DNA of 34,823 nt. Origin: a virus. Where the stretch lies: UHGV virus genome UHGV-0362719, one strand, 5' to 3'. Of this stretch, positions 4,392 to 29,156 are shown in pieces. The position numbers and the translations under genes were made by a program. The notes beneath the pieces were generated by a model. That model saw only the letters and a list, made by a program, of their open reading frames with translations, was not told where the DNA came from and searched no databases. Positions within the stretch are counted from its first letter, which is position 1. Each line of letters begins with the position of its first letter.

Positions 4392-4663
4392 GTATTCGTA
4401 TTGAAATTGGCGAACGTTATGTCGTTACCAGTGACAGCTTTCAGTTTATTCTCCACGAGAAAAAGAGAGCTGAAAGCGGTAAAAACGCCGGTCAGGAATG
4501 GCTGGCGGTGGTTGGTTATTACCCGAAATTAAGCCAGCTCGTTTCCGGCCTGATGCATCACGATATTCTGACCGGAAGCGCAAAGTCTTTTGCTGATTTA
4601 AACGCGCAGGTTGAGCAACTCAGCAAGCGTTGTTCAGAGGCTTTTGGCTCATATGGCCGTTAA
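4388..4663 (+). CDS. Early hypothetical protein, P2 orf83-like
   Basis: Track ORF immediately upstream of and overlapping the A start. Confidence 0.5.
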   Translation: MSIRIEIGERYVVTSDSFQFILHEKKRAESGKNAGQEWLAVVGYYPKLSQLVSGLMHHDILTGSAKSFADLNAQVEQLSKRCSEAFGSYGR

Positions 4664-6923
4664 AGCCTCCGGGCGTTTTGTCCCTCCGTCAGCATTTGCC
4701 GCAGGCACCGGTGAGACGTTTACCGGTGCTTATGCATGGAACGCGCCACGCGAGGCCGTCGGGCGCGAAAGACCCCTTACACGTGACGAGATGCGTCAGG
4801 TGCAAGGTGTTTTATCCACGATTAATCGCCTGCCTTACTTTTTGCGCTCGCTGTTTACTTCACGCTATGACTACATCCGGCGCAATAAAAGCCCGGTGCA
4901 CGGGTTTTATTTCCTCACATCCACTTTTCAGCGTCGTTTATGGCCGCGCATTGAGCGTGTGAATCAGCGCCATGAAATGAACACCGACGCGTCGATGCTG
5001 TTTCTGGCTGAGCGTGACCACTATGCGCGCCTGCCGGGAATGAATGACAAGGAGCTGAAAAAGTTTGCCGCCCGTATCTCATCGCAGCTTTTCATGATGT
5101 ATGAGGAACTCAGCGATGCCTGGGTGGATGCGCATGGCGAAAAAGAATCGCTGTTTACGGATGAGGCGCAGGCTCACCTCTATGGTCATGTTGCTGGCGC
5201 TGCACGTGCTTTCAATATTTCCCCTCTCTACTGGAAAAAATACCGTAAAGGACAGATGACCACGAGGCAGGCATATTCTGCCATTGCCCGTCTGTTTAAC
5301 GATGAGTGGTGGATTAGTCAGCTTAAAGGCCAGCGTATGCGCTGGCATGAGGCGTTACTGATTGCTGTCGGGGAGGTCAATAAAGACCGTTCTCCTTATG
5401 CCAGTAAACATGCCATTCGTGATGTGCGTGCACGCCGCCAGGCAAATCTGGAATTTCTTAAATCGTGTGATCTCGAAAACAGGGAAACAGGCGAGCGCAT
5501 CGACCTTATCAGTAAGGTGATGGGCAGTATTTCTAATCCTGAAATTCGCCGGATGGAGCTGATGAACACCATTGCCGGTATTGAGCGTTACGCCGCCGCA
5601 GAAGGTGATGTGGGGATGTTTATCACGCTGACCGCGCCGTCAAAGTATCACCCGACACGTCAGGTTGGAAAAGGCGAAAGTAAAACCGTCCAGCTAAATC
5701 ACGGCTGGAACGATGAGGCATTTAATCCAAAGGATGCGCAGCGTTATCTCTGCCGTATCTGGAGCCTGATGCGCACGGCATTCAAGGATAATGATTTACA
5801 GGTCTACGGTTTGCGAGTCGTCGAGCCACACCACGACGGAACGCCGCACTGGCATATGATGCTTTTTTGTAATCCACGCCAGCGTAACCAGATTATCGAA
5901 ATCATGCGTCGCTACGCGCTCAAAGAGGATGGCGACGAAAGAGGAGCTGCGCGAAACCGTTTTCAGGCAAAACATCTTAATCGGGGCGGTGCTGCGGGGT
6001 ATATCGCGAAATACATCTCAAAAAATATCGACGGCTATGCACTGGATGGGCAGCTCGATAACGATACCGGCAGACCGCTGAAAGATACTGCCGCGGCTGT
6101 TACCGCATGGGCGTCAACGTGGCGCATTCCGCAATTTAAAACGGTTGGCCTGCCGACAATGGGGGCTTACCGTGAACTACGCAAATTGCCTCGCGGCGTC
6201 AGCATTGCTGATGAGTTTGACGAGCGCGTCGAGGCTGCACGCGCCGCCGCAGACAGTGGTGATTTTGCGCTGTATATCAGCGCGCAGGGTGGGGCAAATG
6301 TCCCGCGCGATTGTCAGACTGTCAGGGTCGCCCGTAGTCCGTCGGATGAAGTTAACGAGTACGAGGAAGAAGTCGAGAGAGTGGTCGGCATTTACGCGCC
6401 GCATCTCGGCGCGCGTCATATTCATATCACCAGAACGACGGACTGGCGCATTGTTCCGAAAGTGCCGGTCGTTGAGCCTTTGACTTTAAAAAGCGGCATC
6501 GCCGCGCCTCGGAGTCCTGTCAATAACTGTGGAAAGCTCACCGGTGGTGATACTTCGTTACCGGCTCCCACACCTTCTGAACACGCCGCAGCAGTGCTTA
6601 ATCTGGTTGATGACGGTGTTATCGAATGGAATGACACGGAGGTCGTGAGGGCGCTCAGGGGGGCATTAAAACACGACCTGAGAACACCAAATCGTCAGCA
6701 AAGAAACGGAAGCCCGTTAAAACCACATGAAATTGCACCATCGGCCCGACTGACCCGGTCGGAACGAATGCAAATCACCCGTATCCGCGTTGACCTTGCC
6801 CAGAACGGTATCAGGCCGCAGCGATGGGAGCTTGAGGTGCTGGCGCGTGGCGCGACCGTAAATTATGACGGGAAAAAATTCACGTATCCGGTCACTGATG
6901 AGTGGCCGGGGTTTGTGGATTAA
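4650..6923 (+). CDS. A: Rolling-circle replication initiator / nickase A
   Basis: Track ORF 4611-6923 (770 aa); I prefer the start MAVKASGRF at about 4650, giving about 757 aa (P2 A about 761 aa). Largest early gene, directly after the orf80-83 block. Start codon uncertain. Confidence 0.85.
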   Translation, partial: HMAVKASGRFVPPSAFAAGTGETFTGAYAWNAPREAVGRERPLTRDEMRQVQGVLSTINRLPYFLRSLFTSRYDYIRRNKSPVHGFYFLTSTFQRRLWPRIERVNQRHEMNTDASMLFLAERDHYARLPGMNDKELKKFAARISSQLFMMYEELSDAWVDAHGEKESLFTDEAQAHLYGHVAGAARAFNISPLYWKKYRKGQMTTRQAYSAIARLFNDEWWISQLKGQRMRWHEALLIAVGEVNKDRSPYASKHAIRDVRARRQANLEFLKSCDLENRETGERIDLISKVMGSISNPEIRRMELMNTIAGIERYAAAEGDVGMFITLTAPSKYHPTRQVGKGESKTVQLNHGWNDEAFNPKDAQRYLCRIWSLMRTAFKDNDLQVYGLRVVEPHHDGTPHWHMMLFCNPRQRNQIIEIMRRYALKEDGDERGAARNRFQAKHLNRGGAAGYIAKYISKNIDGYALDGQLDNDTGRPLKDTAAAVTAWASTWRIPQFKTVGLPTMGAYRELRKLPRGVSIADEFDERVEAARAAADSGDFALYISAQGGANVPRDCQTVRVARSPSDEVNEYEEEVERVVGIYAPHLGARHIHITRTTDWRIVPKVPVVEPLTLKSGIAAPRSPVNNCGKLTGGDTSLPAPTPSEHAAAVLNLVDDGVIEWNDTEVVRALRGALKHDLRTPNRQQRNGSPLKPHEIAPSARLTRSERMQITRIRVDLAQNGIRPQRWELEVLARGATVNYDGKKFTYPVTDEWPGFVD

Positions 6924-6968: not shown

Positions 6969-7406
6969 ATGGTAAGAGTTTGCATTGATAAGAAAGGGAA
7001 TGTTATCACCGATATCTCTTTGGGAGTCGGGGATTTTGAAGATTGTTGTAGCGTAGCAGAGGAGAAGTATAATCAGGCACTTTGCAGTAATTTTGTGAGT
7101 GTGGTGGCAGTGGTGAATGACGATAATGAGAAAATAGGTTTTTGTTCATTCATCATTGAATCTACAGAGGACGCTGTAATATATCAAATCGATTATGTTT
7201 GGGTTAAGCAAAGTGAGCGGGGACAAGGGTTATCAAAATTAATGATTCCTTATGTGGCTCAAGAGCTTATTTCTATTTATAAAGACTTGCTTGGAAAGTA
7301 TTCATTTGGTGATATATGTCTTTGTGATAATTCTGTTTATATATCGGATGGAGGGGCTGTTTTTGGTCGAGGGGTAAAGGGATTCACCTTTAATGTAATT
7401 AAGTAA
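6969..7406 (+). CDS. Cargo ORF, GNAT-like acetyltransferase candidate
   Basis: 145 aa, low GC. Segment VWVKQSERGQGLSKLMI resembles the GNAT motif-A acetyl-CoA loop (R-G-x-G-h-g). Weak, by-eye call. Confidence 0.4.
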   Translation: MVRVCIDKKGNVITDISLGVGDFEDCCSVAEEKYNQALCSNFVSVVAVVNDDNEKIGFCSFIIESTEDAVIYQIDYVWVKQSERGQGLSKLMIPYVAQELISIYKDLLGKYSFGDICLCDNSVYISDGGAVFGRGVKGFTFNVIK

Positions 7407-7462
7407 TTCCGGGTGAAATGAAAAAGATATCTCAATGTTTGAGATGGAACAAATTTAAGAAA

Positions 7463-7500
7463 CTCCGCCGGTGCTGAAACTTGCTTTCAGTGCTGGCGGA
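7463..7500. terminator. Bidirectional hairpin between convergent cargo ORFs
   Basis: Seen: about 15-bp imperfect stem (CCGCCGGTGCTGAAA / TTTCAGTGCTGGCGG, three G-U wobbles) with loop CTTGC, lying between the stops of 6969-7406 (+) and 7515-7946 (-). Confidence 0.5.
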
Positions 7501-7514
7501 GGTGAAGTAAGGCG

Positions 7515-7946
7515 TTAGCTAGTTATCAGATTGACACCGAGGGTAAGCAGGTTTGTTACTGCACCGGCAATAACACCAGGTGTCCCGTCCTTCACTGCGC
7601 TGATAATCTTATCTCCCATCGTTTCATTACCGCCAAGTGCTTCGGGTTTTTTGTTGAGCACCGCGAGTGCTTTCTCGGTCAGTCGCACATCATGAAAACC
7701 GGTCTGATGGTCTGTTCCGTACAGAATATAGCCGTTTTCGCTTAAGAAAGTGAATGTGCCATCAACCACACTACGCAACTGATTCAGTGCTTTCATTTCT
7801 GGTGAGTTAAGTTGGTCAAAGTAGTCATCAGGTAACGCGGCGTTAAATTTTTTGTAGGTGATGACTTGTGGTACAGGAAAGTTATCCCATAGCACCGCAA
7901 AGATTTCTGCCGTCTGTTGGTTGAATAATTCGAGATTTTTGGACAT
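7515..7946 (-). CDS. Cargo hypothetical protein (143 aa), unknown function
   Basis: Track ORF with AAGGGA RBS about 8 nt upstream of ATG; hydrophobic Gly/Ala-rich C-terminal tail (GTPGVIAGAVTNLLTLGVNLI). No recognisable family. Confidence 0.55.
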   Translation of the reverse strand: MSKNLELFNQQTAEIFAVLWDNFPVPQVITYKKFNAALPDDYFDQLNSPEMKALNQLRSVVDGTFTFLSENGYILYGTDHQTGFHDVRLTEKALAVLNKKPEALGGNETMGDKIISAVKDGTPGVIAGAVTNLLTLGVNLITS

Positions 7947-8450
7947 GCATAGTTCCCTTTCATCAATTAAAGACCCTTATGCCGACTGGGCAAAGAGGCT
8001 AACTGTAATGGCCTCAAATAACGACCTGAGCTCACGCGAGGTGGACAGTTACACTGAAAAAATGGTTGAACAAGCCAGTAAAGATGAGCTTATGGTCGTT
8101 ATAAAATACCTGTTAAATCACATCAGAATGAGTAAATAAAATGATCTATATCAAGATGTTATCTCACATTTATGAAAGTCCGTGGACAACGATTTTTCTG
8201 CTAATTGTTGTCAGTACGTGCCTCAACAGTGTGATTGGTGCATTGCGCGGCCAGTGACAACTATAAAAATTGATCAGAACCGGCACCATGAATGCCGGTT
8301 TTTTTGTGCTTTTTCTGTGATATCCCCGTTTTTATCTGTGCATGGTTTTGCATGTGCCGGAGTTACATGTTCTGGCTGTGCGTCCGCCAGGACTGGCGTG
8401 GCTCAAAAGCGGTATTGCAACTGCATTAAAACCGCCCCATGAAGCGGGCG

Positions 8451-8469
8451 GGCGAGGCGGGGAAAGCAC
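8451..8469. promoter_or_regulatory. cos: Putative cos site (19-nt cohesive end GGCGAGGCGGGGAAAGCAC)
   Basis: Seen: exact 19-mer GGCGAGGCGGGGAAAGCAC at 8451-8469 with flanking dyad symmetry (CCGCCC...GGGCGG). Matches my recollection of the P2/P4 cohesive-end sequence, which I cannot verify here. Confidence 0.5.
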
Positions 8470-8575
8470 CGCGCGTAAGATAAACAGAAGAGCGAAGGAT
8501 TATGGTTGAGTATTTGTGTTTTTGTACATATGATAAAAAGGTGTTTACGCTTAAAAACACATCAAAGGAGATGAT

Positions 8576-9877
8576 ATGGAAAATATAAAGATTGATAAGT
8601 TTCTCACTATTCAAAAAGTTGATATTCCTCTTAAGAAAGTGAATATATTTATTGGGCCTCAGGCACAGGGGAAAAGTGTCATTGCAAAGCTAATAAAATA
8701 TTTTAAAGATTACCCTATGGATATACTACGAGCTTCAACAGAGGGTAAAACTAAAAGAGATATATTGAAGGAGCAAAAGAATAAGTTTAGTAAAATTTTC
8801 CCTCAGCAGTATTGGGCTGATGATGAGTTTTTTATTGAGTATAGTAATAAGCACTATTGGGTGCGGATTACTAATCGAAAAGATAGCAAAGGGTCATTGA
8901 AAATAACCCTTTCTGAGAATTTAACGAAGACGATTGCTAAACTTCGTTTGATTGTACGAAAGGATTTAGATGAAAATATTGAGAATTCACTTGCAGAAAG
9001 CGTTACGAGAAGACGTAAACGCGGAATTGAACATGAATTGCGAGTATGTCTTTCTCTAGGATTGTTTTCAGAACCAGAAACAAAGCTTGAAAGTGTTTTT
9101 TATATCCCCGCAGGGCGCTCTTTTTTTGCTAACTTGCAAAAAAATGTGTTTTCATTTTTATCCAGTAGTATAGAAATTGACTACTTTTTGACAGAGTTTG
9201 GTTCTCTGTATGAACAAACAAAAAAATTATTTAGCCAAGATTACATGATTAGGATGCTTAGGGGGGCTGTGCCTCAACATGTTAATAAGCTTGTGGAGGA
9301 GTTGATTTGCGGAAAATATATAACAGAAAAGGGTGAGGATTTTATTCGTCATGCTGCTAAAAAGACGAATCTTAACAACTCGAGCTCAGGGCAGCAAGAA
9401 GCGTTACCAATGGCTTTAATGTTATCCTCATGGCCGTATTTACAGTCTATGACTAGTAAGAGTTTTATTATTGAGGAGCCGGAGGCTCATCTGTTTCCTT
9501 CTGCCCAAGCAAAAGTTGTATCTTTAATAGCCTCAGCGTATAACCAAGCAGAAAGCTATTGTAGCTATACAATAACAACACATAGCCCATATATTCTAAG
9601 TGCCTTCAATAATTTGATTCAAGCAGGTAATGCATTGAAGTGTATTAAGGGCAAGAATAATGCCGATATCGAACGCTTATATAAGCTTGTTCCAGAGTCT
9701 CAAATTATTGATTTTGATGATGTGACAGCTTATATGGTTAATGCTGGGAAAGTGACGGAAATACTGGATTCCGAACTAAATATATTAGATGCGAATGAAA
9801 TAGATAGGATTTCCTCTATTTTTTCAGAGACTTTTGATGCATTGATTGATATCGAATATTCGGCTACTGTGAATTAG
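8576..9877 (+). CDS. ABC-type (OLD/SMC/RecF-like AAA_15/AAA_21-type) ATPase, candidate defence protein
   Basis: 433 aa, strong AAGGAG RBS. Seen motifs: Walker A GPQAQGKS; signature-like SSGQQ; Walker B/D-loop FIIEEPEAHLFP; H-loop TTHSP. No TOPRIM-like C-terminal domain evident. Very low GC relative to the backbone. Confidence 0.8.
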   Translation: MENIKIDKFLTIQKVDIPLKKVNIFIGPQAQGKSVIAKLIKYFKDYPMDILRASTEGKTKRDILKEQKNKFSKIFPQQYWADDEFFIEYSNKHYWVRITNRKDSKGSLKITLSENLTKTIAKLRLIVRKDLDENIENSLAESVTRRRKRGIEHELRVCLSLGLFSEPETKLESVFYIPAGRSFFANLQKNVFSFLSSSIEIDYFLTEFGSLYEQTKKLFSQDYMIRMLRGAVPQHVNKLVEELICGKYITEKGEDFIRHAAKKTNLNNSSSGQQEALPMALMLSSWPYLQSMTSKSFIIEEPEAHLFPSAQAKVVSLIASAYNQAESYCSYTITTHSPYILSAFNNLIQAGNALKCIKGKNNADIERLYKLVPESQIIDFDDVTAYMVNAGKVTEILDSELNILDANEIDRISSIFSETFDALIDIEYSATVN

Positions 9878-9885
9878 GTGATTGA

Positions 9886-10323
9886 ATGTGTAAAAATTGC
9901 AAAGGAAAAACAAAAAATAAAATCATTGTGCTATCTGATAAAGGAACGTCAACGCAATTGTCAGTCATAAATGATAATGAGTTGGAGGTTGAGCATAAGT
10001 TAATAGATGGTTGCGCTATTGTTGTTGGGGAGCGGTGTGATCATTATTTGAAGATTTATAACAATCAGGATGTTTCACATCTTTTTGTTGAACTTAAAGG
10101 AAGTGATGTTGAAAAAGCTGTTAAACAGATAGTGACAACTTTAAAGTCAGGTGTGATTAATGTAGGTGCTAAAGAAAAAAAACATGGTGCTATTGTTAGC
10201 ACTAGGAATCCGCTAAACTCAACAGAAACCAATAAGTTAAAGAAGAAAATTCTTTTGAGTGACGGAGTGAATTTGCATTTCTATAAAATGAAGGCGCAGC
10301 AAAAAATAACTTCTTTTACATGA
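9886..10323 (+). CDS. Small partner protein of the ABC ATPase (145 aa), possible nuclease-like effector
   Basis: Starts 9 bp after the ATPase stop, same strand (operon). N-terminal CKNCKGK (CxxC); possible D...ExK arrangement (ERCDHY ... LFVELKG). Nuclease assignment is inference only. Confidence 0.6.
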   Translation: MCKNCKGKTKNKIIVLSDKGTSTQLSVINDNELEVEHKLIDGCAIVVGERCDHYLKIYNNQDVSHLFVELKGSDVEKAVKQIVTTLKSGVINVGAKEKKHGAIVSTRNPLNSTETNKLKKKILLSDGVNLHFYKMKAQQKITSFT

Positions 10324-20449: not shown

Positions 20450-20532
20450 TACGCTCTCCTCGAATGTTGTATGGTCGTTCTACAAATGAATCCAGATAGC
20501 ATAACTTTTATATATTGTGCAATCTCACACGC

Positions 20533-21168
20533 ATGAACACTCTCGCAAATATTCAGGAACTCGCGCGCGCACTGCGCAACATGATCCGCACCGGCATTAT
20601 CGTCGAAACCGACCTTAATGCCGGTCGCTGCCGTGTGCAGACCGGCGGCATGTGCACCGACTGGCTTCAGTGGCTGACCCATCGCGCCGGGCGTTCGCGC
20701 ACATGGTGGGCACCTTCCGTGGGGGAACAGGTGCTGATTCTGGCCGTGGGTGGTGAACTCGACACGGCGTTCGTTCTGCCGGGGATTTATTCCGGCGATA
20801 ACCCCGCGCCGTCTGCGTCGGCGGATGCCCTGCATATCCGTTTCCCTGACGGGGCGGTGATTGAGTATGAACCTGAAACCAGCGCGCTCACGGTAAGCGG
20901 AGTTAAAACGGCCAGCGTGACGGCTTCTGATTCTGTTACTGCCACGGTGCCGGTGGTCATGGTGAAAGCATCAACCCGCATCACCCTGGACACACCGGAG
21001 GTGGTCTGCACCAACAGGCTGATTACCGGCACGCTGGAAGTGCAGAAGGGCGGGACGATGCGCGGCAACATTGAACACACCGGCGGTGAACTCTCATCAA
21101 ACGGTAAGGTACTGCATACCCATAAACACCCCGGCGACAGCGGCGGCACAACCGGGAGCCCTCTATGA
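20533..21168 (+). CDS. V: Baseplate spike protein V
   Basis: Track ORF 20515-21168; start MNTLANIQ gives 211 aa (same as P2 V); first gene of the V-W-J-I-H-G block. Confidence 0.85.
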   Translation: MNTLANIQELARALRNMIRTGIIVETDLNAGRCRVQTGGMCTDWLQWLTHRAGRSRTWWAPSVGEQVLILAVGGELDTAFVLPGIYSGDNPAPSASADALHIRFPDGAVIEYEPETSALTVSGVKTASVTASDSVTATVPVVMVKASTRITLDTPEVVCTNRLITGTLEVQKGGTMRGNIEHTGGELSSNGKVLHTHKHPGDSGGTTGSPL

Positions 21169-21512
21169 CAGCGCGTTATCTCGGAATGAATCGCAGTGAT
21201 GGCCTGACTGTCACTGACCTTGAGCATATCAGCCAGAGTATCGGCGATATCCTGCGCACACCGGTCGGCTCACGGGTGATGCGTCGTGATTACGGCTCGT
21301 TGCTGGCGTCAATGATTGACCAGCCGCAGACCCCGGCGCTTGAGTTGCAGATTAAGGTCGCCTGTTACATGGCGGTGCTGAAATGGGAACCCCGCGTCAC
21401 CCTGTCATCCGTCACCACTGAGCGCAGTTTTGACGGGCGAATGACAGTTACGTTAACCGGCCAGCACAACGACACCGGCCAGCCAATTTCGTTAACCATC
21501 CCTGTGAGTTGA
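21165..21512 (+). CDS. W: Baseplate protein W (gp25-like)
   Basis: 115 aa (same as P2 W); overlapping stop/start with V. Confidence 0.85.
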   Translation: MTARYLGMNRSDGLTVTDLEHISQSIGDILRTPVGSRVMRRDYGSLLASMIDQPQTPALELQIKVACYMAVLKWEPRVTLSSVTTERSFDGRMTVTLTGQHNDTGQPISLTIPVS

Positions 21513-21516
21513 AACC

Positions 21517-22425
21517 ATGCCGATTATCGACCTGAACCAGCTACCCGCACCGGATGTGGTCGAGGAGCTGGACTTTGAAACCATTCTCGCCGAACGCAAG
21601 GCGACACTGATTTCCCTTTACCCGGAAGACCAGCAGGAGGCGGTCGCCCGTACCCTGACACTGGAATCTGAGCCTCTCGTCAAACTGCTGGAAGAAAATG
21701 CTTATCGTGAGCTTATCTGGCGTCAGCGTGTGAATGAGGCCGCACGGGCGGTGATGCTGGCCTGTGCCGCCGGTAATGACCTTGATGTGATTGGTGCCAA
21801 TTACAACACCACGCGTCTGACTATCACCCCGGCAGATGATTCGACCATCCCGCCGACACCGGCAGTGATGGAATCTGATACCGATTATCGTCTGCGTATT
21901 CAGCAGGCGTTTGAAGGTTTAAGCGTCGCCGGGTCGGTGGGTGCCTATCAGTATCATGGTCGCAGTGCTGACGGGCGTGTCGCGGATATCTCTGTCACCA
22001 GTCCGTCTCCGGCCTGCGTCACCATCTCTGTGCTGTCACGTGAGAATAACGGTGTCGCATCCAAAGACCTGCTGGCGGTGGTGCGTAACGCCCTGAATGG
22101 CGAGGACGTCAGACCGGTGGCCGACCGCGTGACCGTGCAGTCTGCCGCCATTGTTGAATACCAGATAAACGCCACGCTTTACCTTTACCCTGGTCCCGAA
22201 AGTGAACCCATCCGCGCGGCCGCCGTGAAAAAACTGGAAGCATACATCACGGCACAGCACCGGCTGGGGCGCGACATCCGTCTGTCTGCCATTTATGCCG
22301 CTTTGCATGTGGAAGGCGTGCAGCGTGTCGAACTGGCTGCACCGCTGGCCGACATCGTGCTCAACAATACGCAGGCGTCTTTCTGTACCGAATACAGCGT
22401 CGTGACCGGAGGCTCGGATGAGTGA
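21517..22425 (+). CDS. J: Baseplate wedge protein J
   Basis: 302 aa (same as P2 J); synteny. Confidence 0.9.
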   Translation: MPIIDLNQLPAPDVVEELDFETILAERKATLISLYPEDQQEAVARTLTLESEPLVKLLEENAYRELIWRQRVNEAARAVMLACAAGNDLDVIGANYNTTRLTITPADDSTIPPTPAVMESDTDYRLRIQQAFEGLSVAGSVGAYQYHGRSADGRVADISVTSPSPACVTISVLSRENNGVASKDLLAVVRNALNGEDVRPVADRVTVQSAAIVEYQINATLYLYPGPESEPIRAAAVKKLEAYITAQHRLGRDIRLSAIYAALHVEGVQRVELAAPLADIVLNNTQASFCTEYSVVTGGSDE

Positions 22426-22948
22426 TTCGCGACTGCTGCCGACCGGCTCATCACCGCTTGAAGTCGCCGCCGCAAAAGCCTGTGCGGAAATTGAAAAAAC
22501 GCCGGTCAGTATTCGTGAGCTGTGGAACCCGGATACCTGTCCGGCAAATCTGCTGCCGTGGCTGGCGTGGGCGTTTTCGGTCGACAGGTGGGATGAAAAG
22601 TGGCCGGAAGCGACAAAACGCGCCGTTATCCGCGATGCCTATTTCATCCACTGTCATAAAGGCACAATAGGTGCAATCCGGCGTGTGGTGGAGCCGCTCG
22701 GCTATCTCATCAACGTGACGGAGTGGTGGGAAAACAGTGACCCGCCCGGCACCTTCCGGCTTGATATTGGTGTACTGGAAAGCGGCATCACAGAGGCAAT
22801 GTATCAGGAAATGGAACGGCTGATTGCTGATGCCAAACCTGCAAGCCGCCACCTTATTGGTCTGAACATTACCCGGGACATTCCCGGCTACCTGTTTGCC
22901 GGTGGTGTGGCTTATGACGGCGATGTAATTACGGTTTACCCCGGATAA
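22418..22948 (+). CDS. I: Baseplate / tail-fibre attachment protein I
   Basis: 176 aa (same as P2 I); synteny. Confidence 0.85.
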   Translation: MSDSRLLPTGSSPLEVAAAKACAEIEKTPVSIRELWNPDTCPANLLPWLAWAFSVDRWDEKWPEATKRAVIRDAYFIHCHKGTIGAIRRVVEPLGYLINVTEWWENSDPPGTFRLDIGVLESGITEAMYQEMERLIADAKPASRHLIGLNITRDIPGYLFAGGVAYDGDVITVYPG

Positions 22949-22958
22949 GTGAGGAATA

Positions 22959-25277
22959 ATGAGCACAAAATTCAAAACCGTTATCACCACTGCCGGTGCA
23001 GCAAAGCTGGCAGCGGCAACCGCGCCGGGAGGGCGGAAGGTCAACATTACCACGATGGCCGTCGGGGATGGCGGTGGTAAATTGCCTGTCCCGGATGCCG
23101 GACAGACCGGGCTTATCCACGAAGTCTGGCGACATGCGCTGAACAAAATCAGCCAGGACAAACGAAACAGTAATTATATTATCGCAGAGCTGGTTATTCC
23201 GCCGGAGGTGGGCGGTTTCTGGATGCGTGAGCTTGGCCTGTACGATGATGCGGGAACGTTAATTGCTGTGGCGAACATGGCCGAAAGTTATAAGCCAGCT
23301 CTTGCCGAAGGCTCAGGGCGTTCGCAGACCTGCCGCATGGTCATCATCGTCAGCAGTGTGGCCTCAGTGGCGCTGACCATTGACACCACAACGGTGATGG
23401 CGACGCAGGATTACGTTGATGACAAAATTGCAGAACATGAACAGTCACGACGTCACCCGGACGCCTCGCTGACCGCAAAAGGTTTTACTCAGTTAAGCAG
23501 TGCGACTAACAGCACGTCTGAAACACTGGCTGCAACGCCAAAGGCGGTAAAGGCCGCATATGACCTTGCTAACGGGAAATATACCGCACAGGACGCCACC
23601 ACAGCACGAAAAGGCCTTGTCCAGCTCAGTAGTGCCACCAACAGCACGTCTGAAACGCTCGCCGCAACACCAAAAGCGGTAAAAGCAGCATATGACCTTG
23701 CTAACGGGAAATATACCGCACAGGACGCCACCACAGCGCGAAAAGGCCTTGTTCAGCTCAGTAGCGCCACCAACAGCGATTCTGAAACGCTGGCCGCAAC
23801 GCCAAAGGCGGTAAAGGTCGCGTATGACCTTGCTAACGGGAAATACACTGCACAGGATGCCACCACCGCGCGAAAAGGTCTTGTCCAGCTCAGTAGCGCC
23901 ACCAACAGTGATTCTGAAACACTGGCCGCAACACCAAAAGCGGTGAAGTCTGCCTATGACAATGCTGAAAAACGTCTTCAGAAAGATCAGAATGGTGCGG
24001 ATATTCCGGGAAAGGATACCTTCACGAAAAATATCGGTGCCTGTCGTGCTTATAGCGGCGCTTTGAGCACTGAAGCCGGAAACTGGACAACCGCTCAGTT
24101 TATTGAATGGCTGGATTCCCGTGGTGCATTTAATCATCCGTACTGGATGTGCAAAGGCTCCTGGTCATATGCAAATAACAAAATCATTACGGATACCGGA
24201 TGTGGTGATATCCACCTGGCTGGTTGTGTCGTCGAGGTCATGGGAACAAAATCTGCAATCACTATTCGAGTGACCACGCCGACAACATCAAGCGGTGGCG
24301 GTACAACCAGCGCGCAATTCACTTACATTAATCATGGGGACGGCTACTCCCCCGGCTGGCGTCGTGACTGGAATCGTCAGGGCGACGCAATGACCGGAAC
24401 GATTAATCAGGATGGCGGAAGCCAGAATGCCTATATGTCTACGGCCTTATGTTCAGGCACCAGAGGCGGCAAAAAATATCTCAGAAAGTTTCGTGGTGGA
24501 GAAGGAGACACTATCTGGCATGAAACAGTGCAGGGCGGGGTAATTCGCTGGGCGACAGGAAACTATGACGCTCAGGAAGAATTATCACTCAGCTCCGCTT
24601 ATGGTCTCCGTTCTAGAGGTGAAATTACATCACTCAGTGCTAATGGTCTGCGCATTGCTTATGGCAATTATGGATTCTTTATCAGGAATGATGGTGGCAG
24701 CACATATTTAATGCTGACGGCCTCTGGTGATAAATTTGGGACATGGAACGGTTTAAGGCCGCTGACTATCAATAACGCTAATGGCGGAGTGTCAATGGGG
24801 CATGGCCTGAGTGTTACTGGTGATATTGCCTCAAGTACCAAAGTACGTGCCGGTAGCGGGAAAAAGTTCACGGTCAGCAGCAGCAATACATCCACGAAGG
24901 AAGCCGCATTCAATTTGTGGGGAAACTCAAGTCGTCCTGTGGTGGCTGAATTAGGTGATGATGCAGGCTGGCATTTTTACAGTCAGAGAAATACAGATAA
25001 CAGCATCACTTTTGCTGTTAACGGGCAGGTATCACCATCTAACTATAGTAATTTTGATTCACGCTATGTCCGGGATATCCGGCTTGGTGGTGCTGCCACA
25101 TACAAACCTGCGAACAATGGCATGACATGGACACATCAGGCACCGTCCGGGTGTGTATATTCCGGCATTATTGTTCAGGATACCGGCTCAAACTCTGCCG
25201 ATAACATTGGTGGCGTATATTACAGACCGGTTCAGAAATACATTAACGGGACATGGTACAACGTGGCGCAGGTATAA
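22959..25277 (+). CDS. H: Tail fibre protein H (extended, repeat-containing, mosaic C-terminus)
   Basis: 772 aa; N-terminal about 170 aa is the conserved P2 H baseplate-attachment region (MSTKFKTVITTAGAAKLAAATAPGG...); central 44-aa tandem repeats; Gly/Ser-rich C-terminal half. P2 H is about 669 aa by recollection. Confidence 0.9.
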   Translation: MSTKFKTVITTAGAAKLAAATAPGGRKVNITTMAVGDGGGKLPVPDAGQTGLIHEVWRHALNKISQDKRNSNYIIAELVIPPEVGGFWMRELGLYDDAGTLIAVANMAESYKPALAEGSGRSQTCRMVIIVSSVASVALTIDTTTVMATQDYVDDKIAEHEQSRRHPDASLTAKGFTQLSSATNSTSETLAATPKAVKAAYDLANGKYTAQDATTARKGLVQLSSATNSTSETLAATPKAVKAAYDLANGKYTAQDATTARKGLVQLSSATNSDSETLAATPKAVKVAYDLANGKYTAQDATTARKGLVQLSSATNSDSETLAATPKAVKSAYDNAEKRLQKDQNGADIPGKDTFTKNIGACRAYSGALSTEAGNWTTAQFIEWLDSRGAFNHPYWMCKGSWSYANNKIITDTGCGDIHLAGCVVEVMGTKSAITIRVTTPTTSSGGGTTSAQFTYINHGDGYSPGWRRDWNRQGDAMTGTINQDGGSQNAYMSTALCSGTRGGKKYLRKFRGGEGDTIWHETVQGGVIRWATGNYDAQEELSLSSAYGLRSRGEITSLSANGLRIAYGNYGFFIRNDGGSTYLMLTASGDKFGTWNGLRPLTINNANGGVSMGHGLSVTGDIASSTKVRAGSGKKFTVSSSNTSTKEAAFNLWGNSSRPVVAELGDDAGWHFYSQRNTDNSITFAVNGQVSPSNYSNFDSRYVRDIRLGGAATYKPANNGMTWTHQAPSGCVYSGIIVQDTGSNSADNIGGVYYRPVQKYINGTWYNVAQV
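23478..23960 (+). repeat. Tandem 132-bp (44-aa) repeats, about 3.6 copies, inside tail fibre gene H
   Basis: Seen in the translation: KG(F/L)(T/V)QLSSATNS(T/D)SETLAATPKAVKAAYDLANGKYTAQDATTAR repeated 3 times plus a partial 4th. Minus-strand track ORFs 23489-23734 and 23493-24137 show the same periodicity. Confidence 0.85.
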
Positions 25278-25280
25278 TTT

Positions 25281-25808
25281 ATGCAGCATTTGATAAATAT
25301 AACGGCAGGTAATCCAAAAACGGTTGAACAATATCAATTGACAAAGGACTTTGATGTTGTCTGGTTTTTTACAGAAGATGGTAAGAACTGGTACGAAGAA
25401 CAAAAGTATTTTGCTGATGACACGATAAAAATAGCGTACGACAAAGATAATATTATCCGCTATGTAGAAAAGGATGTGACAGCTATCAGACCGGATGGAT
25501 TAAGTGTTGTTGAAGTGCCGGATATTACTGCTAACCGACGGGCGGACATTTCAGGGAACTGGATGTTTAAGGACGGCAAAGTGATTAAACGCATTTATAC
25601 GGCAGAGGAATTACAACAGCAGGCAGAAATTCGGAAAGCCAGACTTCTTGCAGATGCTGAATCCGTGATTTTGCCGCTGGAGCGCGCTGTCAGGCTGAAT
25701 ATGGCAACAGAGGAGGAGCGCACACGGCTGGAGGCTTGGGAACGCTACAGCGTTTTGGTCAGTCGTGTGGATCCTGCAAATCCTGAATGGCCGGAAATGC
25801 CGCAATAA
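25281..25808 (+). CDS. G: Tail fibre assembly chaperone G
   Basis: 175 aa (same as P2 G), immediately after H. Confidence 0.8.
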
Positions 25809-25983
25809 GTTGTATAAGCTCTGGTGTGAGATTACATATCTATGGCACAGAGTAAAGCCTAATCTGGCAGTCCGCTCTGTGCCATTACCGGACATACTGA
25901 GCAGAAGGCTAAAAAGGACGCTTTCAGGACATATAGCAAGGGAGCAAAGATGAAAGAATTAACCCAGTAATGATAGTTTCTGA

Positions 25984-26010
25984 ATTAAAGGGGGCTACCC
26001 ACCCCCTTTA
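25984..26010. terminator. Strong GC hairpin after the stop of the leftward cargo ORF
   Basis: Seen: TTAAAGGGGG-CTACCCA-CCCCCTTTAA (10-bp stem, 7-nt loop) with A/T-rich flanks, 2 bp from the stop of ORF 26012-26290 (-). Confidence 0.55.
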
Positions 26011-26011
26011 A

Positions 26012-26290
26012 TTACTTGTTCCACTCAGTCAGAATTTGGTTACTAACTTCATCTGAGAGATTGTACCAATAAGCTGAGTTATTGGTTGCGTCTACAACAA
26101 TAAGCTTATCATCACTATCCATGACCGCCCTCACAATTTTGGCTGCATCCTCGGCAGAGTAACTACAGTTAACATACCAGTTCGATTCAGTTGTTAAAGC
26201 CCAATTTCCTAAAGATTTAATTGCATCATACACAGCCGCATAATCTTTCGTTTTAATGAGGTCGTAAGTAATAAATAAATTATTAGCCAT
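26012..26290 (-). CDS. Cargo hypothetical protein (92 aa) at the G-FI (Z/fun) position
   Basis: Track ORF, AT-rich, opposite strand to the tail operons, followed by a hairpin terminator; no recognisable motif. Confidence 0.5.
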   Translation of the reverse strand: MANNLFITYDLIKTKDYAAVYDAIKSLGNWALTTESNWYVNCSYSAEDAAKIVRAVMDSDDKLIVVDATNNSAYWYNLSDEVSNQILTEWNK

Positions 26291-26342
26291 AAATCATCTC
26301 CCAAAGGACAAAGAAAAAAGCGCCTAGAAAGGCGCTCATATA

Positions 26343-26561
26343 TTAATGGTCTTTAAGCCATGCCTGTACTTTCTTAGCCGAATGACCTACAGCCTGTACG
26401 GCTTGAACAAGTTTGGCCTCGCTAACTCCAAACTTTTCAGCCCAATCACGTCTCTCGTAATCCTGTTTGATACTTATTAAATCATTGTCAGGGGTACCGA
26501 TTTTGGTCTTATCATCAGCCATTTTACTGATTCCTCGTGATACAGGCTTATACCTGCCCAT
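26343..26561 (-). CDS. Cargo small protein, DUF3606-like (by-eye resemblance)
   Basis: Track ORF (72 aa; alternative start MADDKTKIG gives about 59 aa). Segment DWAEKFGVSEAKLVQAVQAVGHSAKKVQAWL resembles DUF3606-family small proteins from memory. Confidence 0.45.
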   Translation of the reverse strand: MGRYKPVSRGISKMADDKTKIGTPDNDLISIKQDYERRDWAEKFGVSEAKLVQAVQAVGHSAKKVQAWLKDH

Positions 26562-27013
26562 TAGTTATATGGCTCCCGTGCTGCTTCGTAAACGTTCAAT
26601 AATCAAACAATTGACACTGATCATAAAACCAGTTAGAGGATTTGACTCTAGCTTGGATATATGATGATGCCACCCCCTTTATATTGTTGTCGGTAACTCA
26701 CAGACATTGAACTCATGCTGGTGAGTGAAAGGCTACATAAACGCCCAACATTTAAACTGCCCTCAGCAGCGTTTGCGGAGCAATATACAGGCTTCGTATT
26801 CAATCCTTGCCCTACGAGAAACCCTAGCCGTTGCCTCGTTTTCAAGTGTCAGGAAGTTCTTTGTCAGACCTCATACAGTCTTGGGCTGGGTGAGGTGCAT
26901 GGGGGAAGTAGAAGCCTTAACTGTTGAGGTAAATCGAACCATAAGTGTGCAATTTTTCAAGCCCGGCGCTATTTTAGTATTGAAAACAATTAGTACGCCC
27001 CCAAGGACAACTC

Positions 27014-27706
27014 ATGATCGAATTTATCGCAGAGCATATAAACACAGTAAGTACACTTATCTCCGCTTTGGCAGCATTGCTAACAGCAGTTGCTACATTT
27101 TTCTTGTGGAGAGTAACAAGGCTATTAGCAGACGAGACAAAAAGGATGGTTGACGCATCAGTTCAACCTCATGTCGTTGTGACTCTTGAACCAAATTCTT
27201 GGGCTGCTTTTTATTTTGATATCAATATTGCTAATACCGGAAATGCCCCAGCCTATGATATTGAAGTCGAATTTAATCCCCCACTGGTTAATGCAGAACA
27301 TAGAAAAAATAAAGGTATACCATTTAGCAAGGTTAGCGTATTGAAAAACGGTCATTCCCTCAACAGCAGTCTTTGTAAGTATGACCAGATTAAAGATCAA
27401 GTTTATTCTGTTAGTATTAGCTGGTCTAAACAGCCGGGCTCAACTGAAAGAGAGCGGAATGAGTATTCTTATGATATGGCTTCTTTCGAGGGGGTTAGCT
27501 ACTTAGGTGCAAGGAGTCCAATGACACAGATAGCTGAGCAGATGAAAAAGATTAGAGAAGACTGGAGGCCGATTTCCCAGGGAAGCAAAAAAATTAAAAC
27601 AGACAACTATAATTCAAGTGACAGAGCAGAGGAACAACGAGCACGTGAAGAGTGGTATCAGACCACTGTAAAGAAATGGGATAAAGAAAGGCCAAAAGAT
27701 AACTAA
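27014..27706 (+). CDS. Cargo membrane-anchored protein (230 aa) at the Z/fun position, candidate defence or exclusion protein
   Basis: Track ORF; N-terminal TM helix (VSTLISALAALLTAVATFFLW) followed by a soluble domain with a charged Lys/Glu/Arg-rich C-terminus; AT-rich; followed by terminator 27841-27870. Confidence 0.6.
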   Translation: MIEFIAEHINTVSTLISALAALLTAVATFFLWRVTRLLADETKRMVDASVQPHVVVTLEPNSWAAFYFDINIANTGNAPAYDIEVEFNPPLVNAEHRKNKGIPFSKVSVLKNGHSLNSSLCKYDQIKDQVYSVSISWSKQPGSTERERNEYSYDMASFEGVSYLGARSPMTQIAEQMKKIREDWRPISQGSKKIKTDNYNSSDRAEEQRAREEWYQTTVKKWDKERPKDN

Positions 27707-27840
27707 TACAATTGACCTGCTCCCCATAAATTAGCATACCACAATCTCAGGTTCCTCTTCGCTCAAAACAGGCTGTCAGATTTGATAGCGTTTTGGCTAT
27801 GTAAATTGTCAGTCGGAAAATGAGTGTGTACAAATCAGGA

Positions 27841-27870
27841 CAGGCGGGCAGATTGCCCGCCTTTTCTTTA
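27841..27870 (+). terminator. Rho-independent terminator downstream of the 230-aa cargo gene
   Basis: Seen: AGGCGGGCA-GAT-TGCCCGCCT perfect 9-bp stem followed by TTTTCTTT. Confidence 0.6.
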
Positions 27871-27965
27871 TCTGTTGTTTCATCCACTGACCAGCCAGGT
27901 CAAATAGCGTCTCATGTACTACCCAACGGAAAATAGTTGCACCCATTAACCACGGAGTTAAACGG

Positions 27966-29156
27966 ATGAGTGACTATCATCACGGCGTGCAGGTGCTGGA
28001 GATTAACGACGGCACCCGCGTCATTTCCACCGTATCCACGGCCATTGTCGGCATGGTCTGCACGGCCAGCGATGCGGATGCGGAAACCTTCCCCATCAAT
28101 AAACCGGTGCTGATTACCAATGTGCAGAGCGCAATTGCAAAGGCCGGTAAAAAAGGCACGCTGGCGGCATCGTTGCAGGCCATCGCCGACCAGTCAAAAC
28201 CGGTCACCGTTGTCGTGCGCGTGGAAGACGGCACCGGCGATGACGAAGAAACGAAACTCGCGCAGACCGTTTCCAATATCATCGGCACCACCGACGAAAA
28301 CGGTCAGTACACCGGACTGAAAGCCCTGCTGGCGGCGGAGTCGGTAACCGGTGTTAAACCGCGTATTCTCGGTGTGCCGGGACTGGATACCAAAGAGGTG
28401 GCTGTTGCACTGGCATCCGTCTGTCAGAAGCTGCGCGCTTTCGGATATATCAGCGCATGGGGCTGTAAGACTATTTCCGAGGTGAAAGCCTACCGCCAGA
28501 ATTTCAGCCAGCGTGAGCTGATGGTCATCTGGCCGGATTTCCTCGCATGGGATACGGTCAGCAGCACCACCGCCACCGCGTATGCCACCGCCCGTGCGTT
28601 GGGTCTGCGCGCTAAAATCGACCAGGAGCAGGGCTGGCATAAAACGCTGTCCAATGTCGGGGTAAACGGTGTTACCGGCATCAGCGCCTCTGTATTCTGG
28701 GATTTGCAGGAGTCCGGCACCGATGCTGACCTGTTGAACGAGTCAGGTGTCACAACGCTGATTCGCCGTGACGGTTTCCGCTTCTGGGGTAACCGTACCT
28801 GCTCTGATGACCCACTGTTCCTCTTTGAAAACTACACCCGCACCGCGCAGGTGCTGGCCGACACGATGGCTGAGGCGCACATGTGGGCGGTGGATAAGCC
28901 CATCACCGCAACGCTGATTCGCGACATCGTTGACGGCATCAATGCCAAATTCCGTGAGCTGAAAACAAACGGCTATATCGTGGATGCGACCTGCTGGTTC
29001 AGCGAAGAATCCAACGATGCGGAAACCCTCAAGGCCGGAAAACTGTATATCGACTATGACTATACCCCGGTGCCTCCTCTCGAAAACCTGACCCTGCGCC
29101 AGCGTATTACTGATAAATATCTGGCAAATCTGGTCACCTCGGTTAACAGCAATTAA
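27966..29156 (+). CDS. FI: Tail sheath protein FI
   Basis: 396 aa (same as P2 FI); synteny FI-FII-E-T-U-D. Confidence 0.95.
   Translation: MSDYHHGVQVLEINDGTRVISTVSTAIVGMVCTASDADAETFPINKPVLITNVQSAIAKAGKKGTLAASLQAIADQSKPVTVVVRVEDGTGDDEETKLAQTVSNIIGTTDENGQYTGLKALLAAESVTGVKPRILGVPGLDTKEVAVALASVCQKLRAFGYISAWGCKTISEVKAYRQNFSQRELMVIWPDFLAWDTVSSTTATAYATARALGLRAKIDQEQGWHKTLSNVGVNGVTGISASVFWDLQESGTDADLLNESGVTTLIRRDGFRFWGNRTCSDDPLFLFENYTRTAQVLADTMAEAHMWAVDKPITATLIRDIVDGINAKFRELKTNGYIVDATCWFSEESNDAETLKAGKLYIDYDYTPVPPLENLTLRQRITDKYLANLVTSVNSN

Follow-up and report, generated by a model that had tools for sequence, protein, structure and literature searches.

A mosaic P2-type tail fibre gene with four in-frame 132-bp repeats, and differing unit numbers among related prophages

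Mosaicism among the tail fibres of P2, Mu, P1, T4-type phages and lambda is long established, and a description of it is said to go back to 1992, when the P2 H/G sequence was first published. P2 H itself (669 aa) contains two units of the phage tail fibre repeat Phage_fiber_2 (PF03406), the H protein of fiAA91-ss contains three, and the gene described here contains four. The fibres of P2 and Mu have been reported to bind the LPS core (PMC9594776, PMC11821841, PMC11915804), P2/P4 particles have been retargeted by exchanging both the C-terminal part of P2 H and the matching chaperone, and engineered P2-P1(S') and P2-S16 chimeras likewise retarget P2 (both PMC9942202, PMC9594776). A 2012 study of collagen-like fibre proteins in prophages noted that little was known about the PF03406 repeat (PMC3368898).

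We analysed gene H in a complete P2-like prophage, the 34,823-nt stretch of viral DNA UHGV-0362719 (hereafter the window). Our overall reading, which we consider probable, is that H encodes a modular P2-type fibre whose number of repeat units is a slow, heritable polymorphism generated by rare recombination, and does not act as a switch.

An ORF of 772 aa on the plus strand at 22959-25277 was recovered exactly where the preliminary description had placed H, with the domain content PF12571, four copies of PF03406, and PF21446; the features of H and G given below lie on the same strand. The N-terminal domain (PF12571 Phage_tail_fib, aa 1-151, 22959-23411, E = 2.5e-58) yields no match among PDB sequences, and its family name together with the P2 literature suggests that it would attach the fibre to the baseplate. 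ORFs from 20515 to 25808 are collinear with P2 genes V-W-J-I-H-G, such that H lies in the P2 order between gene I (Tail_P2_I, 22418-22948), directly before it, and gene G (25281-25808), which encodes a tail fibre assembly protein of 175 aa (PF02413 Caudo_TAP, E = 8.8e-34). An FI-like (sheath gene) ORF follows G at 27966-29156, and none of the three small unrelated ORFs between G and FI matches a recombinase family. ORFs, Pfam families and gene order therefore agree with the original identification of H as a P2-like tail fibre gene with chaperone gene G next in line, and by every feature testable here (a P2-type N-terminus, operon position, and a chaperone next to it) H belongs to the P2 gpH family. 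Its product is predicted to trimerise into the tail fibre of this P2-like (Peduovirus) prophage and to mediate adsorption. The protein is common: hundreds of contigs encode entries listed at 100% identity to H and annotated "tail fiber protein", P0043, for example, on 184 contigs and P0028 on 96.

The repeat array occupies 23445-23972 and consists of four in-frame 132-bp/44-aa Phage_fiber_2 repeats, delimited by Tandem Repeats Finder, Pfam and unit-by-unit comparison: unit 1 at 23445-23576 (aa 163-206), unit 2 at 23577-23708 (aa 207-250), unit 3 at 23709-23840 (aa 251-294) and unit 4 at 23841-23972 (aa 295-338). By Tandem Repeats Finder, the only tandem array of the 34.8-kb window that scores above 42 lies at 23508-23960, with a score of 689, 89% matches and 3.4 copies of a 132-nt period, and a repeat search returned three 226-nt copies at a spacing of 132 nt. 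Membership of PF03406 is defined by a score above the gathering threshold and by tandem units of ~42 aa, and H shows both, with four matching stretches (E = 4.4e-77, 253.9 bits vs a cut-off of 22); an HMM built from the units themselves locates repeats at aa 163, 207, 251 and 295. The extension of H by tandem 132-bp repeats is thereby confirmed, while the account of 3.6 near-identical 44-aa repeats needs amending: there are four units in register, and near-identity holds at the protein level for units 2-4 (2-5 differences per 44 residues) but not for unit 1, which differs from unit 2 at 11 of 44 residues and begins with a different stretch of 12 residues. The repeats had also been called near-identical as DNA, and this did not hold, as units 2-4 share only 107-119 of 132 nt (81-90%) and the longest exact identity between neighbouring units is 50 nt (within 23556-23737, where 23556-23605 equals 23688-23737 at a shift of 132).

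Similarity to P2 H is high at the N-terminus and is lost within the array, in keeping with the initial view that the C-terminal half is modular and divergent from canonical P2 H. The first 251 residues are 95% identical to P2 H, with divergence setting in after aa ~242-251, and similarity resumes only weakly, at aa 635-704 (73% nt identity) and then in the last codons and G. Between and around these points, the C-terminal half of H is a mosaic of an Sv'-like part, a gp34/S-like trimerisation part and a distal part resembling Mu S and P2. The first of these, a Mu/P1 Sv'-like module at aa 329-486 (23943-24416), shares 67.5% of its residues with the Mu Sv' ORF; among solved structures, that of the Mu G(-) fibre S' (PDB 8ju3) matches H with E = 4.3e-91 and its best stretch at aa 333-487, and aa ~334-474 are ~81% identical to P1 Sv' and 84-86% identical to lambdoid side tail fibres. 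It is followed by a domain of the T4 gp34 C-terminal trimerisation type (PF21446 Gp34_trimer, aa 541-604, 24579-24770, E = 7.6e-26); T4 gp34 (PDB 4uxe and 5nxh) and Mu S (PDB 5yvq) both align to aa 550-624, and the gp34/Mu S-like trimerisation module of H spans aa 541-624. The distal stretch of H, tip included (aa 550-771, 24606-25271), resembles Mu S, the G+ fibre, with PDB 5yvq aligned over chain residues 266-503 (E = 1e-60) and 40% aa identity to Mu S across aa 519-770. The C-terminal region had further been called Gly/Ser/Thr-rich; there is a mild enrichment (32.7% G+S+T in aa 339-772 vs 25.1% in the matching part of P2 H), though not strong richness.

The position of the similarity boundaries bears on what the repeats are for. 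P2 H DNA similarity (96% over 22959-23683) ends inside unit 2, fiAA91-ss similarity restarts inside the array at nt 23622, and in other phages the repeat is found directly upstream of Sv'-like sequence (lambdoid Stf) or preceding the G-segment boundary (Mu S). One could suppose from this that the repeat serves mainly as a homology "handle" for swapping distal modules between unrelated phages, with extra copies arising as by-products. We give this reading tentative standing at best and think it rather less probable than otherwise: it leaves unexplained both the upkeep of several tandem copies and the conservation of the unit protein, and its breakpoints were mapped by BLAST similarity blocks. 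It is in any case compatible with, and not exclusive of, a slow polymorphism in unit number.

A further boundary lies near the end of H. The fibre tip (aa 687-772) and gene G together form a 792-nt block (25017-25808) that is 95.3% identical to fiAA91-ss and is also found in the E. coli Peduoviruses P22H1, P24C9, D8, 10W, 12W and PhiR44, whereas Yersinia phage vB_YpM_46 is 99.3% identical at the nucleotide level over 22959-25087 and ~82% identical thereafter. Because the block at 25017-25808 tracks the fiAA91-ss group while the sequence upstream of it tracks vB_YpM_46, the last ~86 aa of H and chaperone G travel as one unit. The G protein shares 74% identity with P2 G, compared with 72% for Mu U and 55% for Mu U'. 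This joint inheritance supports the suggestion that the C-terminal domain and G can be swapped as a module. As for hypervariability of the tip itself, 114 close proteins (64 distinct) show few alternative tip alleles and nothing that would point to a diversity-generating process.

Structure prediction contributed little to this picture. A full-length AlphaFold2 monomer of H, based on an alignment of 13 sequences, gave an unusable model (mean pLDDT 32.7, pTM 0.24), as expected for the monomer of an intertwined trimer and a shallow alignment. PDB searches with the repeat region and with a 17-unit profile found the PF03406 repeat only in Mu S and S' constructs. Combining domain content with what is reported for related fibres, we propose that the N-terminal ~160 aa would constitute the P2-specific part that docks on the baseplate, and that the four units would form part of the proximal shaft, at a conserved junction between the phage-specific N-terminus and distal modules common to P2, Mu, P1 and lambdoid fibres. 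The distal half, comprising the Sv'-like, gp34/S-like and S/P2-like tip parts, would set receptor binding, the most probable receptor being the LPS core by analogy with P2 and Mu. The final ~86 residues would need the cognate chaperone G for folding and would be exchanged along with it. If the units do belong to the shaft, their number would be expected to determine fibre length, and fibre length may in turn matter for host range.

Unit number does differ between related prophages, as had been anticipated, with between one and six copies across about 220 relatives; copy number is not invariant, nor is the C-terminus identical to that of P2 H. The best 120 database proteins all have the C-terminal architecture of H, and contain three (728 aa), four (772 aa), five (808-819 aa) or six (855-863 aa) units. 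Two three-unit proteins (P0018 and P0022) and one five-unit protein (P0001) have N- and C-terminal flanks that are 100% identical to those of the H protein; the six-unit forms with the C-terminal module of the window have a divergent N-terminus. In IMG/VR and in GTDB contigs (one genome per species), 103 H loci had one to five units, in every case starting in register at aa 162 or 163; of those with the C-terminal type of the window, 17 had four units and one had five. Within each C-terminal type a single copy number predominates, and variants of plus or minus one are rare. Across types the number is two, four or five, and total protein length is not adjusted to compensate. We found no description of a copy-number series of the PF03406 repeat in P2-like H genes in a search that took in few of the P2 papers in subscription journals; copy-number variation in H therefore cannot be claimed as undescribed, and we treat it as a minor point.

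Such a series could also be imagined as a neutral length polymorphism, in which one to six units are tolerated, rare unequal recombination lets the number drift, and adsorption and host range are unaffected. The occurrence of the window's C-terminal module with three, four, five and, alongside a divergent N-terminus, six units is in line with drift, as is the uncompensated length of the different C-terminal types. Against it, the unit protein is under strong purifying selection (8-13 synonymous vs 2-5 non-synonymous codon differences per pair among units 2-4), and a modal copy number is kept within each C-terminal type; these two observations together suggest that the array is not free to vary. 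We therefore regard strict neutrality as doubtful, if conceivable, and retain as our preferred reading a slow, heritable polymorphism.

The sequences of individual arrays indicate how unit number may change. In E. coli strain E1 (L006), the array equals units 1, 3 and 4 of the window exactly, with unit 2 precisely lost, in a prophage with the same cargo genes and, beyond the array on its downstream side, 99.6% identity; judging from these sequences, the crossover that deleted unit 2 must have fallen inside the 50-nt identity, in the interval 23556-23737. In a five-unit array (L005), no difference separates unit 3 from unit 4 over nt 37-132, the mark of a recent duplication, and a three-unit array (L003) differs from L005 by two units. 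We propose that unit number would shift when adjacent units now and then undergo unequal homologous recombination in register, and that this recombination would preserve the reading frame, giving fibres of one to six units. Comparison by position is informative about the tempo of this process: units at the same position in different phages are 92-99% identical, vs 81-88% between neighbours within an array, and the array is therefore old and has not been homogenised by frequent unequal exchange.

The same comparisons weigh on the suggestion in the preliminary description that the repeats make fibre length phase-variable, that is, that high-frequency reversible slippage makes fibre length differ among members of one phage or lysogen population. 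Tandem in-frame repeats with 50 nt of exact identity, and natural variants of plus or minus one unit, count in its favour. Against it, the units are 132 bp long and only 81-90% identical, and they show no concerted evolution. We searched 5,426 E. coli genomes, counting copies in the best 40 and best 60 matches and in identity bands. Of the best 40 complete-genome matches (at least 98% identity), 39 contain an uninterrupted 2319-nt match, equivalent to four copies, with E1 as the sole exception; repeats of 132 bp may be collapsed or wrongly counted when short reads are assembled, but this complete-genome set gives the same pattern. The four-copy matches include sets of strains with derivative-style names (2020N21-110, -15 and -24; 2022N21-074 and -17) that are identical to one another. 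The E1-type array is the sole such record at 99% identity or above among the matches listed from the 5,426 genomes, whereas the other three-unit arrays among the listed E. coli matches are ~96-97% identical and represent separate lineages, and an O145 lineage contains a two-unit array with the same flanks. Finally, a unit is 44 codons long and every natural variant keeps the reading frame, which leaves no room for an ON/OFF state. We consequently set phase variation aside as extremely improbable, a verdict that rests on assembled genomes, with which low-level variants inside one culture would be compatible, and return to rare, heritable change in unit number as the process that best accommodates these data.

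Whether length itself has been shaped by selection is a more speculative matter. Fibre length may have adaptive value, and one could go further and view the PF03406 array as an evolvable "length dial" for contractile-phage fibres, in which rare in-register recombination would set how far a fibre of one to six units reaches, and selection would match the modal unit number of each distal module to the depth of O-antigen or capsule over the LPS core. We think this extension unlikely, but if it were true the natural three-, four- and five-unit alleles with identical flanks would make it directly testable, and they offer a ready series for relating fibre length to adsorption. For the engineering of P2/P4 delivery particles, the mosaic map could be a guide to natural fusion points, one where the repeats pass into the Sv'-like module near aa 329-338 (nt ~23943-23972) and one at nt ~25017, before the tip and G. 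Its practical value is modest: H is an instance of textbook tail-fibre modularity, known in kind, and leaves current understanding unchallenged.

Set beside the systems from which its parts are known, H shares with P2 gpH/gpG the gene order V-W-J-I-H-G, the repeat family and the last 14 residues of H, while aa ~252-634 of the window protein are unrelated or distantly related to P2 gpH and the tip differs at aa 709-757. The closest sequenced phage to the H gene is Yersinia phage vB_YpM_46 (Peduovirus YPM46), such that a near-identical gene has already been deposited: the high identity extends over gene nt 1-2129, and the four units match one-for-one, but the tip, encoded by the final ~190 nt of H, and G belong to another allele. 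T4 gp34 (PF21446; PDB 4UXE, 5NXH) has only the trimerisation domain in common with H, at aa 541-624.

The Mu S/S' (gp49, and the variable part gp52) and P1 S/S' fibres, with their chaperones U/U', provide homologous variable parts and chaperones, and Mu S has a single PF03406 unit just upstream of the G-segment boundary. Unlike the Mu/P1 switch, however, the window has no invertible segment, no second inverted Sv-U set and no serine invertase of the Gin/Cin type; its attachment domain is P2-type, and it fuses in one fixed gene the Sv'-like and S-like parts that alternate in Mu and P1. A search for the Mu gix site gave no match at up to 3 mismatches across the window; the query sequence was not database-derived, making this a weaker test than the absence of an invertase ORF from the window. 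With neither a gix-like site nor an invertase, H is therefore best described as a fixed fusion that is not switchable.

The arrangement of the junction itself has a counterpart in the lambdoid Stf proteins of mEp460_ev081 and the PhiR phages, in which two PF03406 units are followed by an Sv'-like module. In mEp460_ev081 Stf the second 44-aa unit runs directly into ...KAVKTAYDNAEKRL, the start of the Sv'-like module in H; the sequence AYDNAEKRL, after the last unit, marks this shared start. The lambdoid proteins differ from H in having another N-terminal domain, a much greater length (1023 aa) and a siphovirus context.

The interval between the chaperone gene G and the sheath gene FI (25809-27965), which is the Z/fun cargo position of P2, contains three small ORFs in the window: a 92-aa ORF on the minus strand (26012-26290), for which no database match was found, a DUF3606 ORF on the same strand (26343-26561), and an ORF of 230 aa on the plus strand (27014-27706) that returned no match in searches of Pfam and PADLOC. 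In the prophages of comparison loci L003 and L005, whose tail fibre proteins have flanks identical to those of the window's H, this position is occupied instead by a 321-aa TIR_2-domain gene, and the cargo differs again in each of P2, the Yersinia phage vB_YpM_46 and fiAA91-ss. The G-FI interval is a variable cargo hotspot, and its cargo possibly serves in defence.

The window also has an early-region cargo slot (6969-10323), which we take to be the tin/old position of P2. It includes a GNAT-like ORF of 145 aa (6969-7406) and a 433-aa AAA_15/AAA_21 ATPase (8576-9877; best PADLOC match PDC-M29A, 2e-31), the next ORF after which, likewise of 145 aa (9886-10323), weakly matches PDC-M29B (2.8e-4). 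The ATPase and this neighbouring ORF are a candidate two-gene defence system.

Two long minus-strand ORFs cross the repeat array of H (23493-24137, 214 aa; 23489-23734, 81 aa). Both are themselves repetitive, and rather than genes they are most likely artefacts of the stop-free repeat. In another comparison locus (L049, IMGVR_UViG_2585427787_000003), the H ORF ends at 289 aa, within repeat unit 3: the fibre gene is truncated or frameshifted there, or else the repeat was misassembled.

P2-like H genes, with N-terminal domains 74-78% identical to that of the window's H, are also borne by contigs of Firmicute- and Bacteroidete-labelled assemblies (L096, titled Vagococcus sp. WN89Y, and L101, titled Chryseobacterium sp. 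18061, respectively); contamination with enterobacterial DNA, or mislabelling of it, probably accounts for their presence there.

Beyond the P2-like fibres, the lambdoid side-tail-fibre locus of phage mEp460_ev081 (L112) has the repeat and the Sv'-like module in common with the window's H. A gene for a serine recombinase (4637-5227, minus strand) lies after this locus, which suggests that the phage has an invertible fibre segment.
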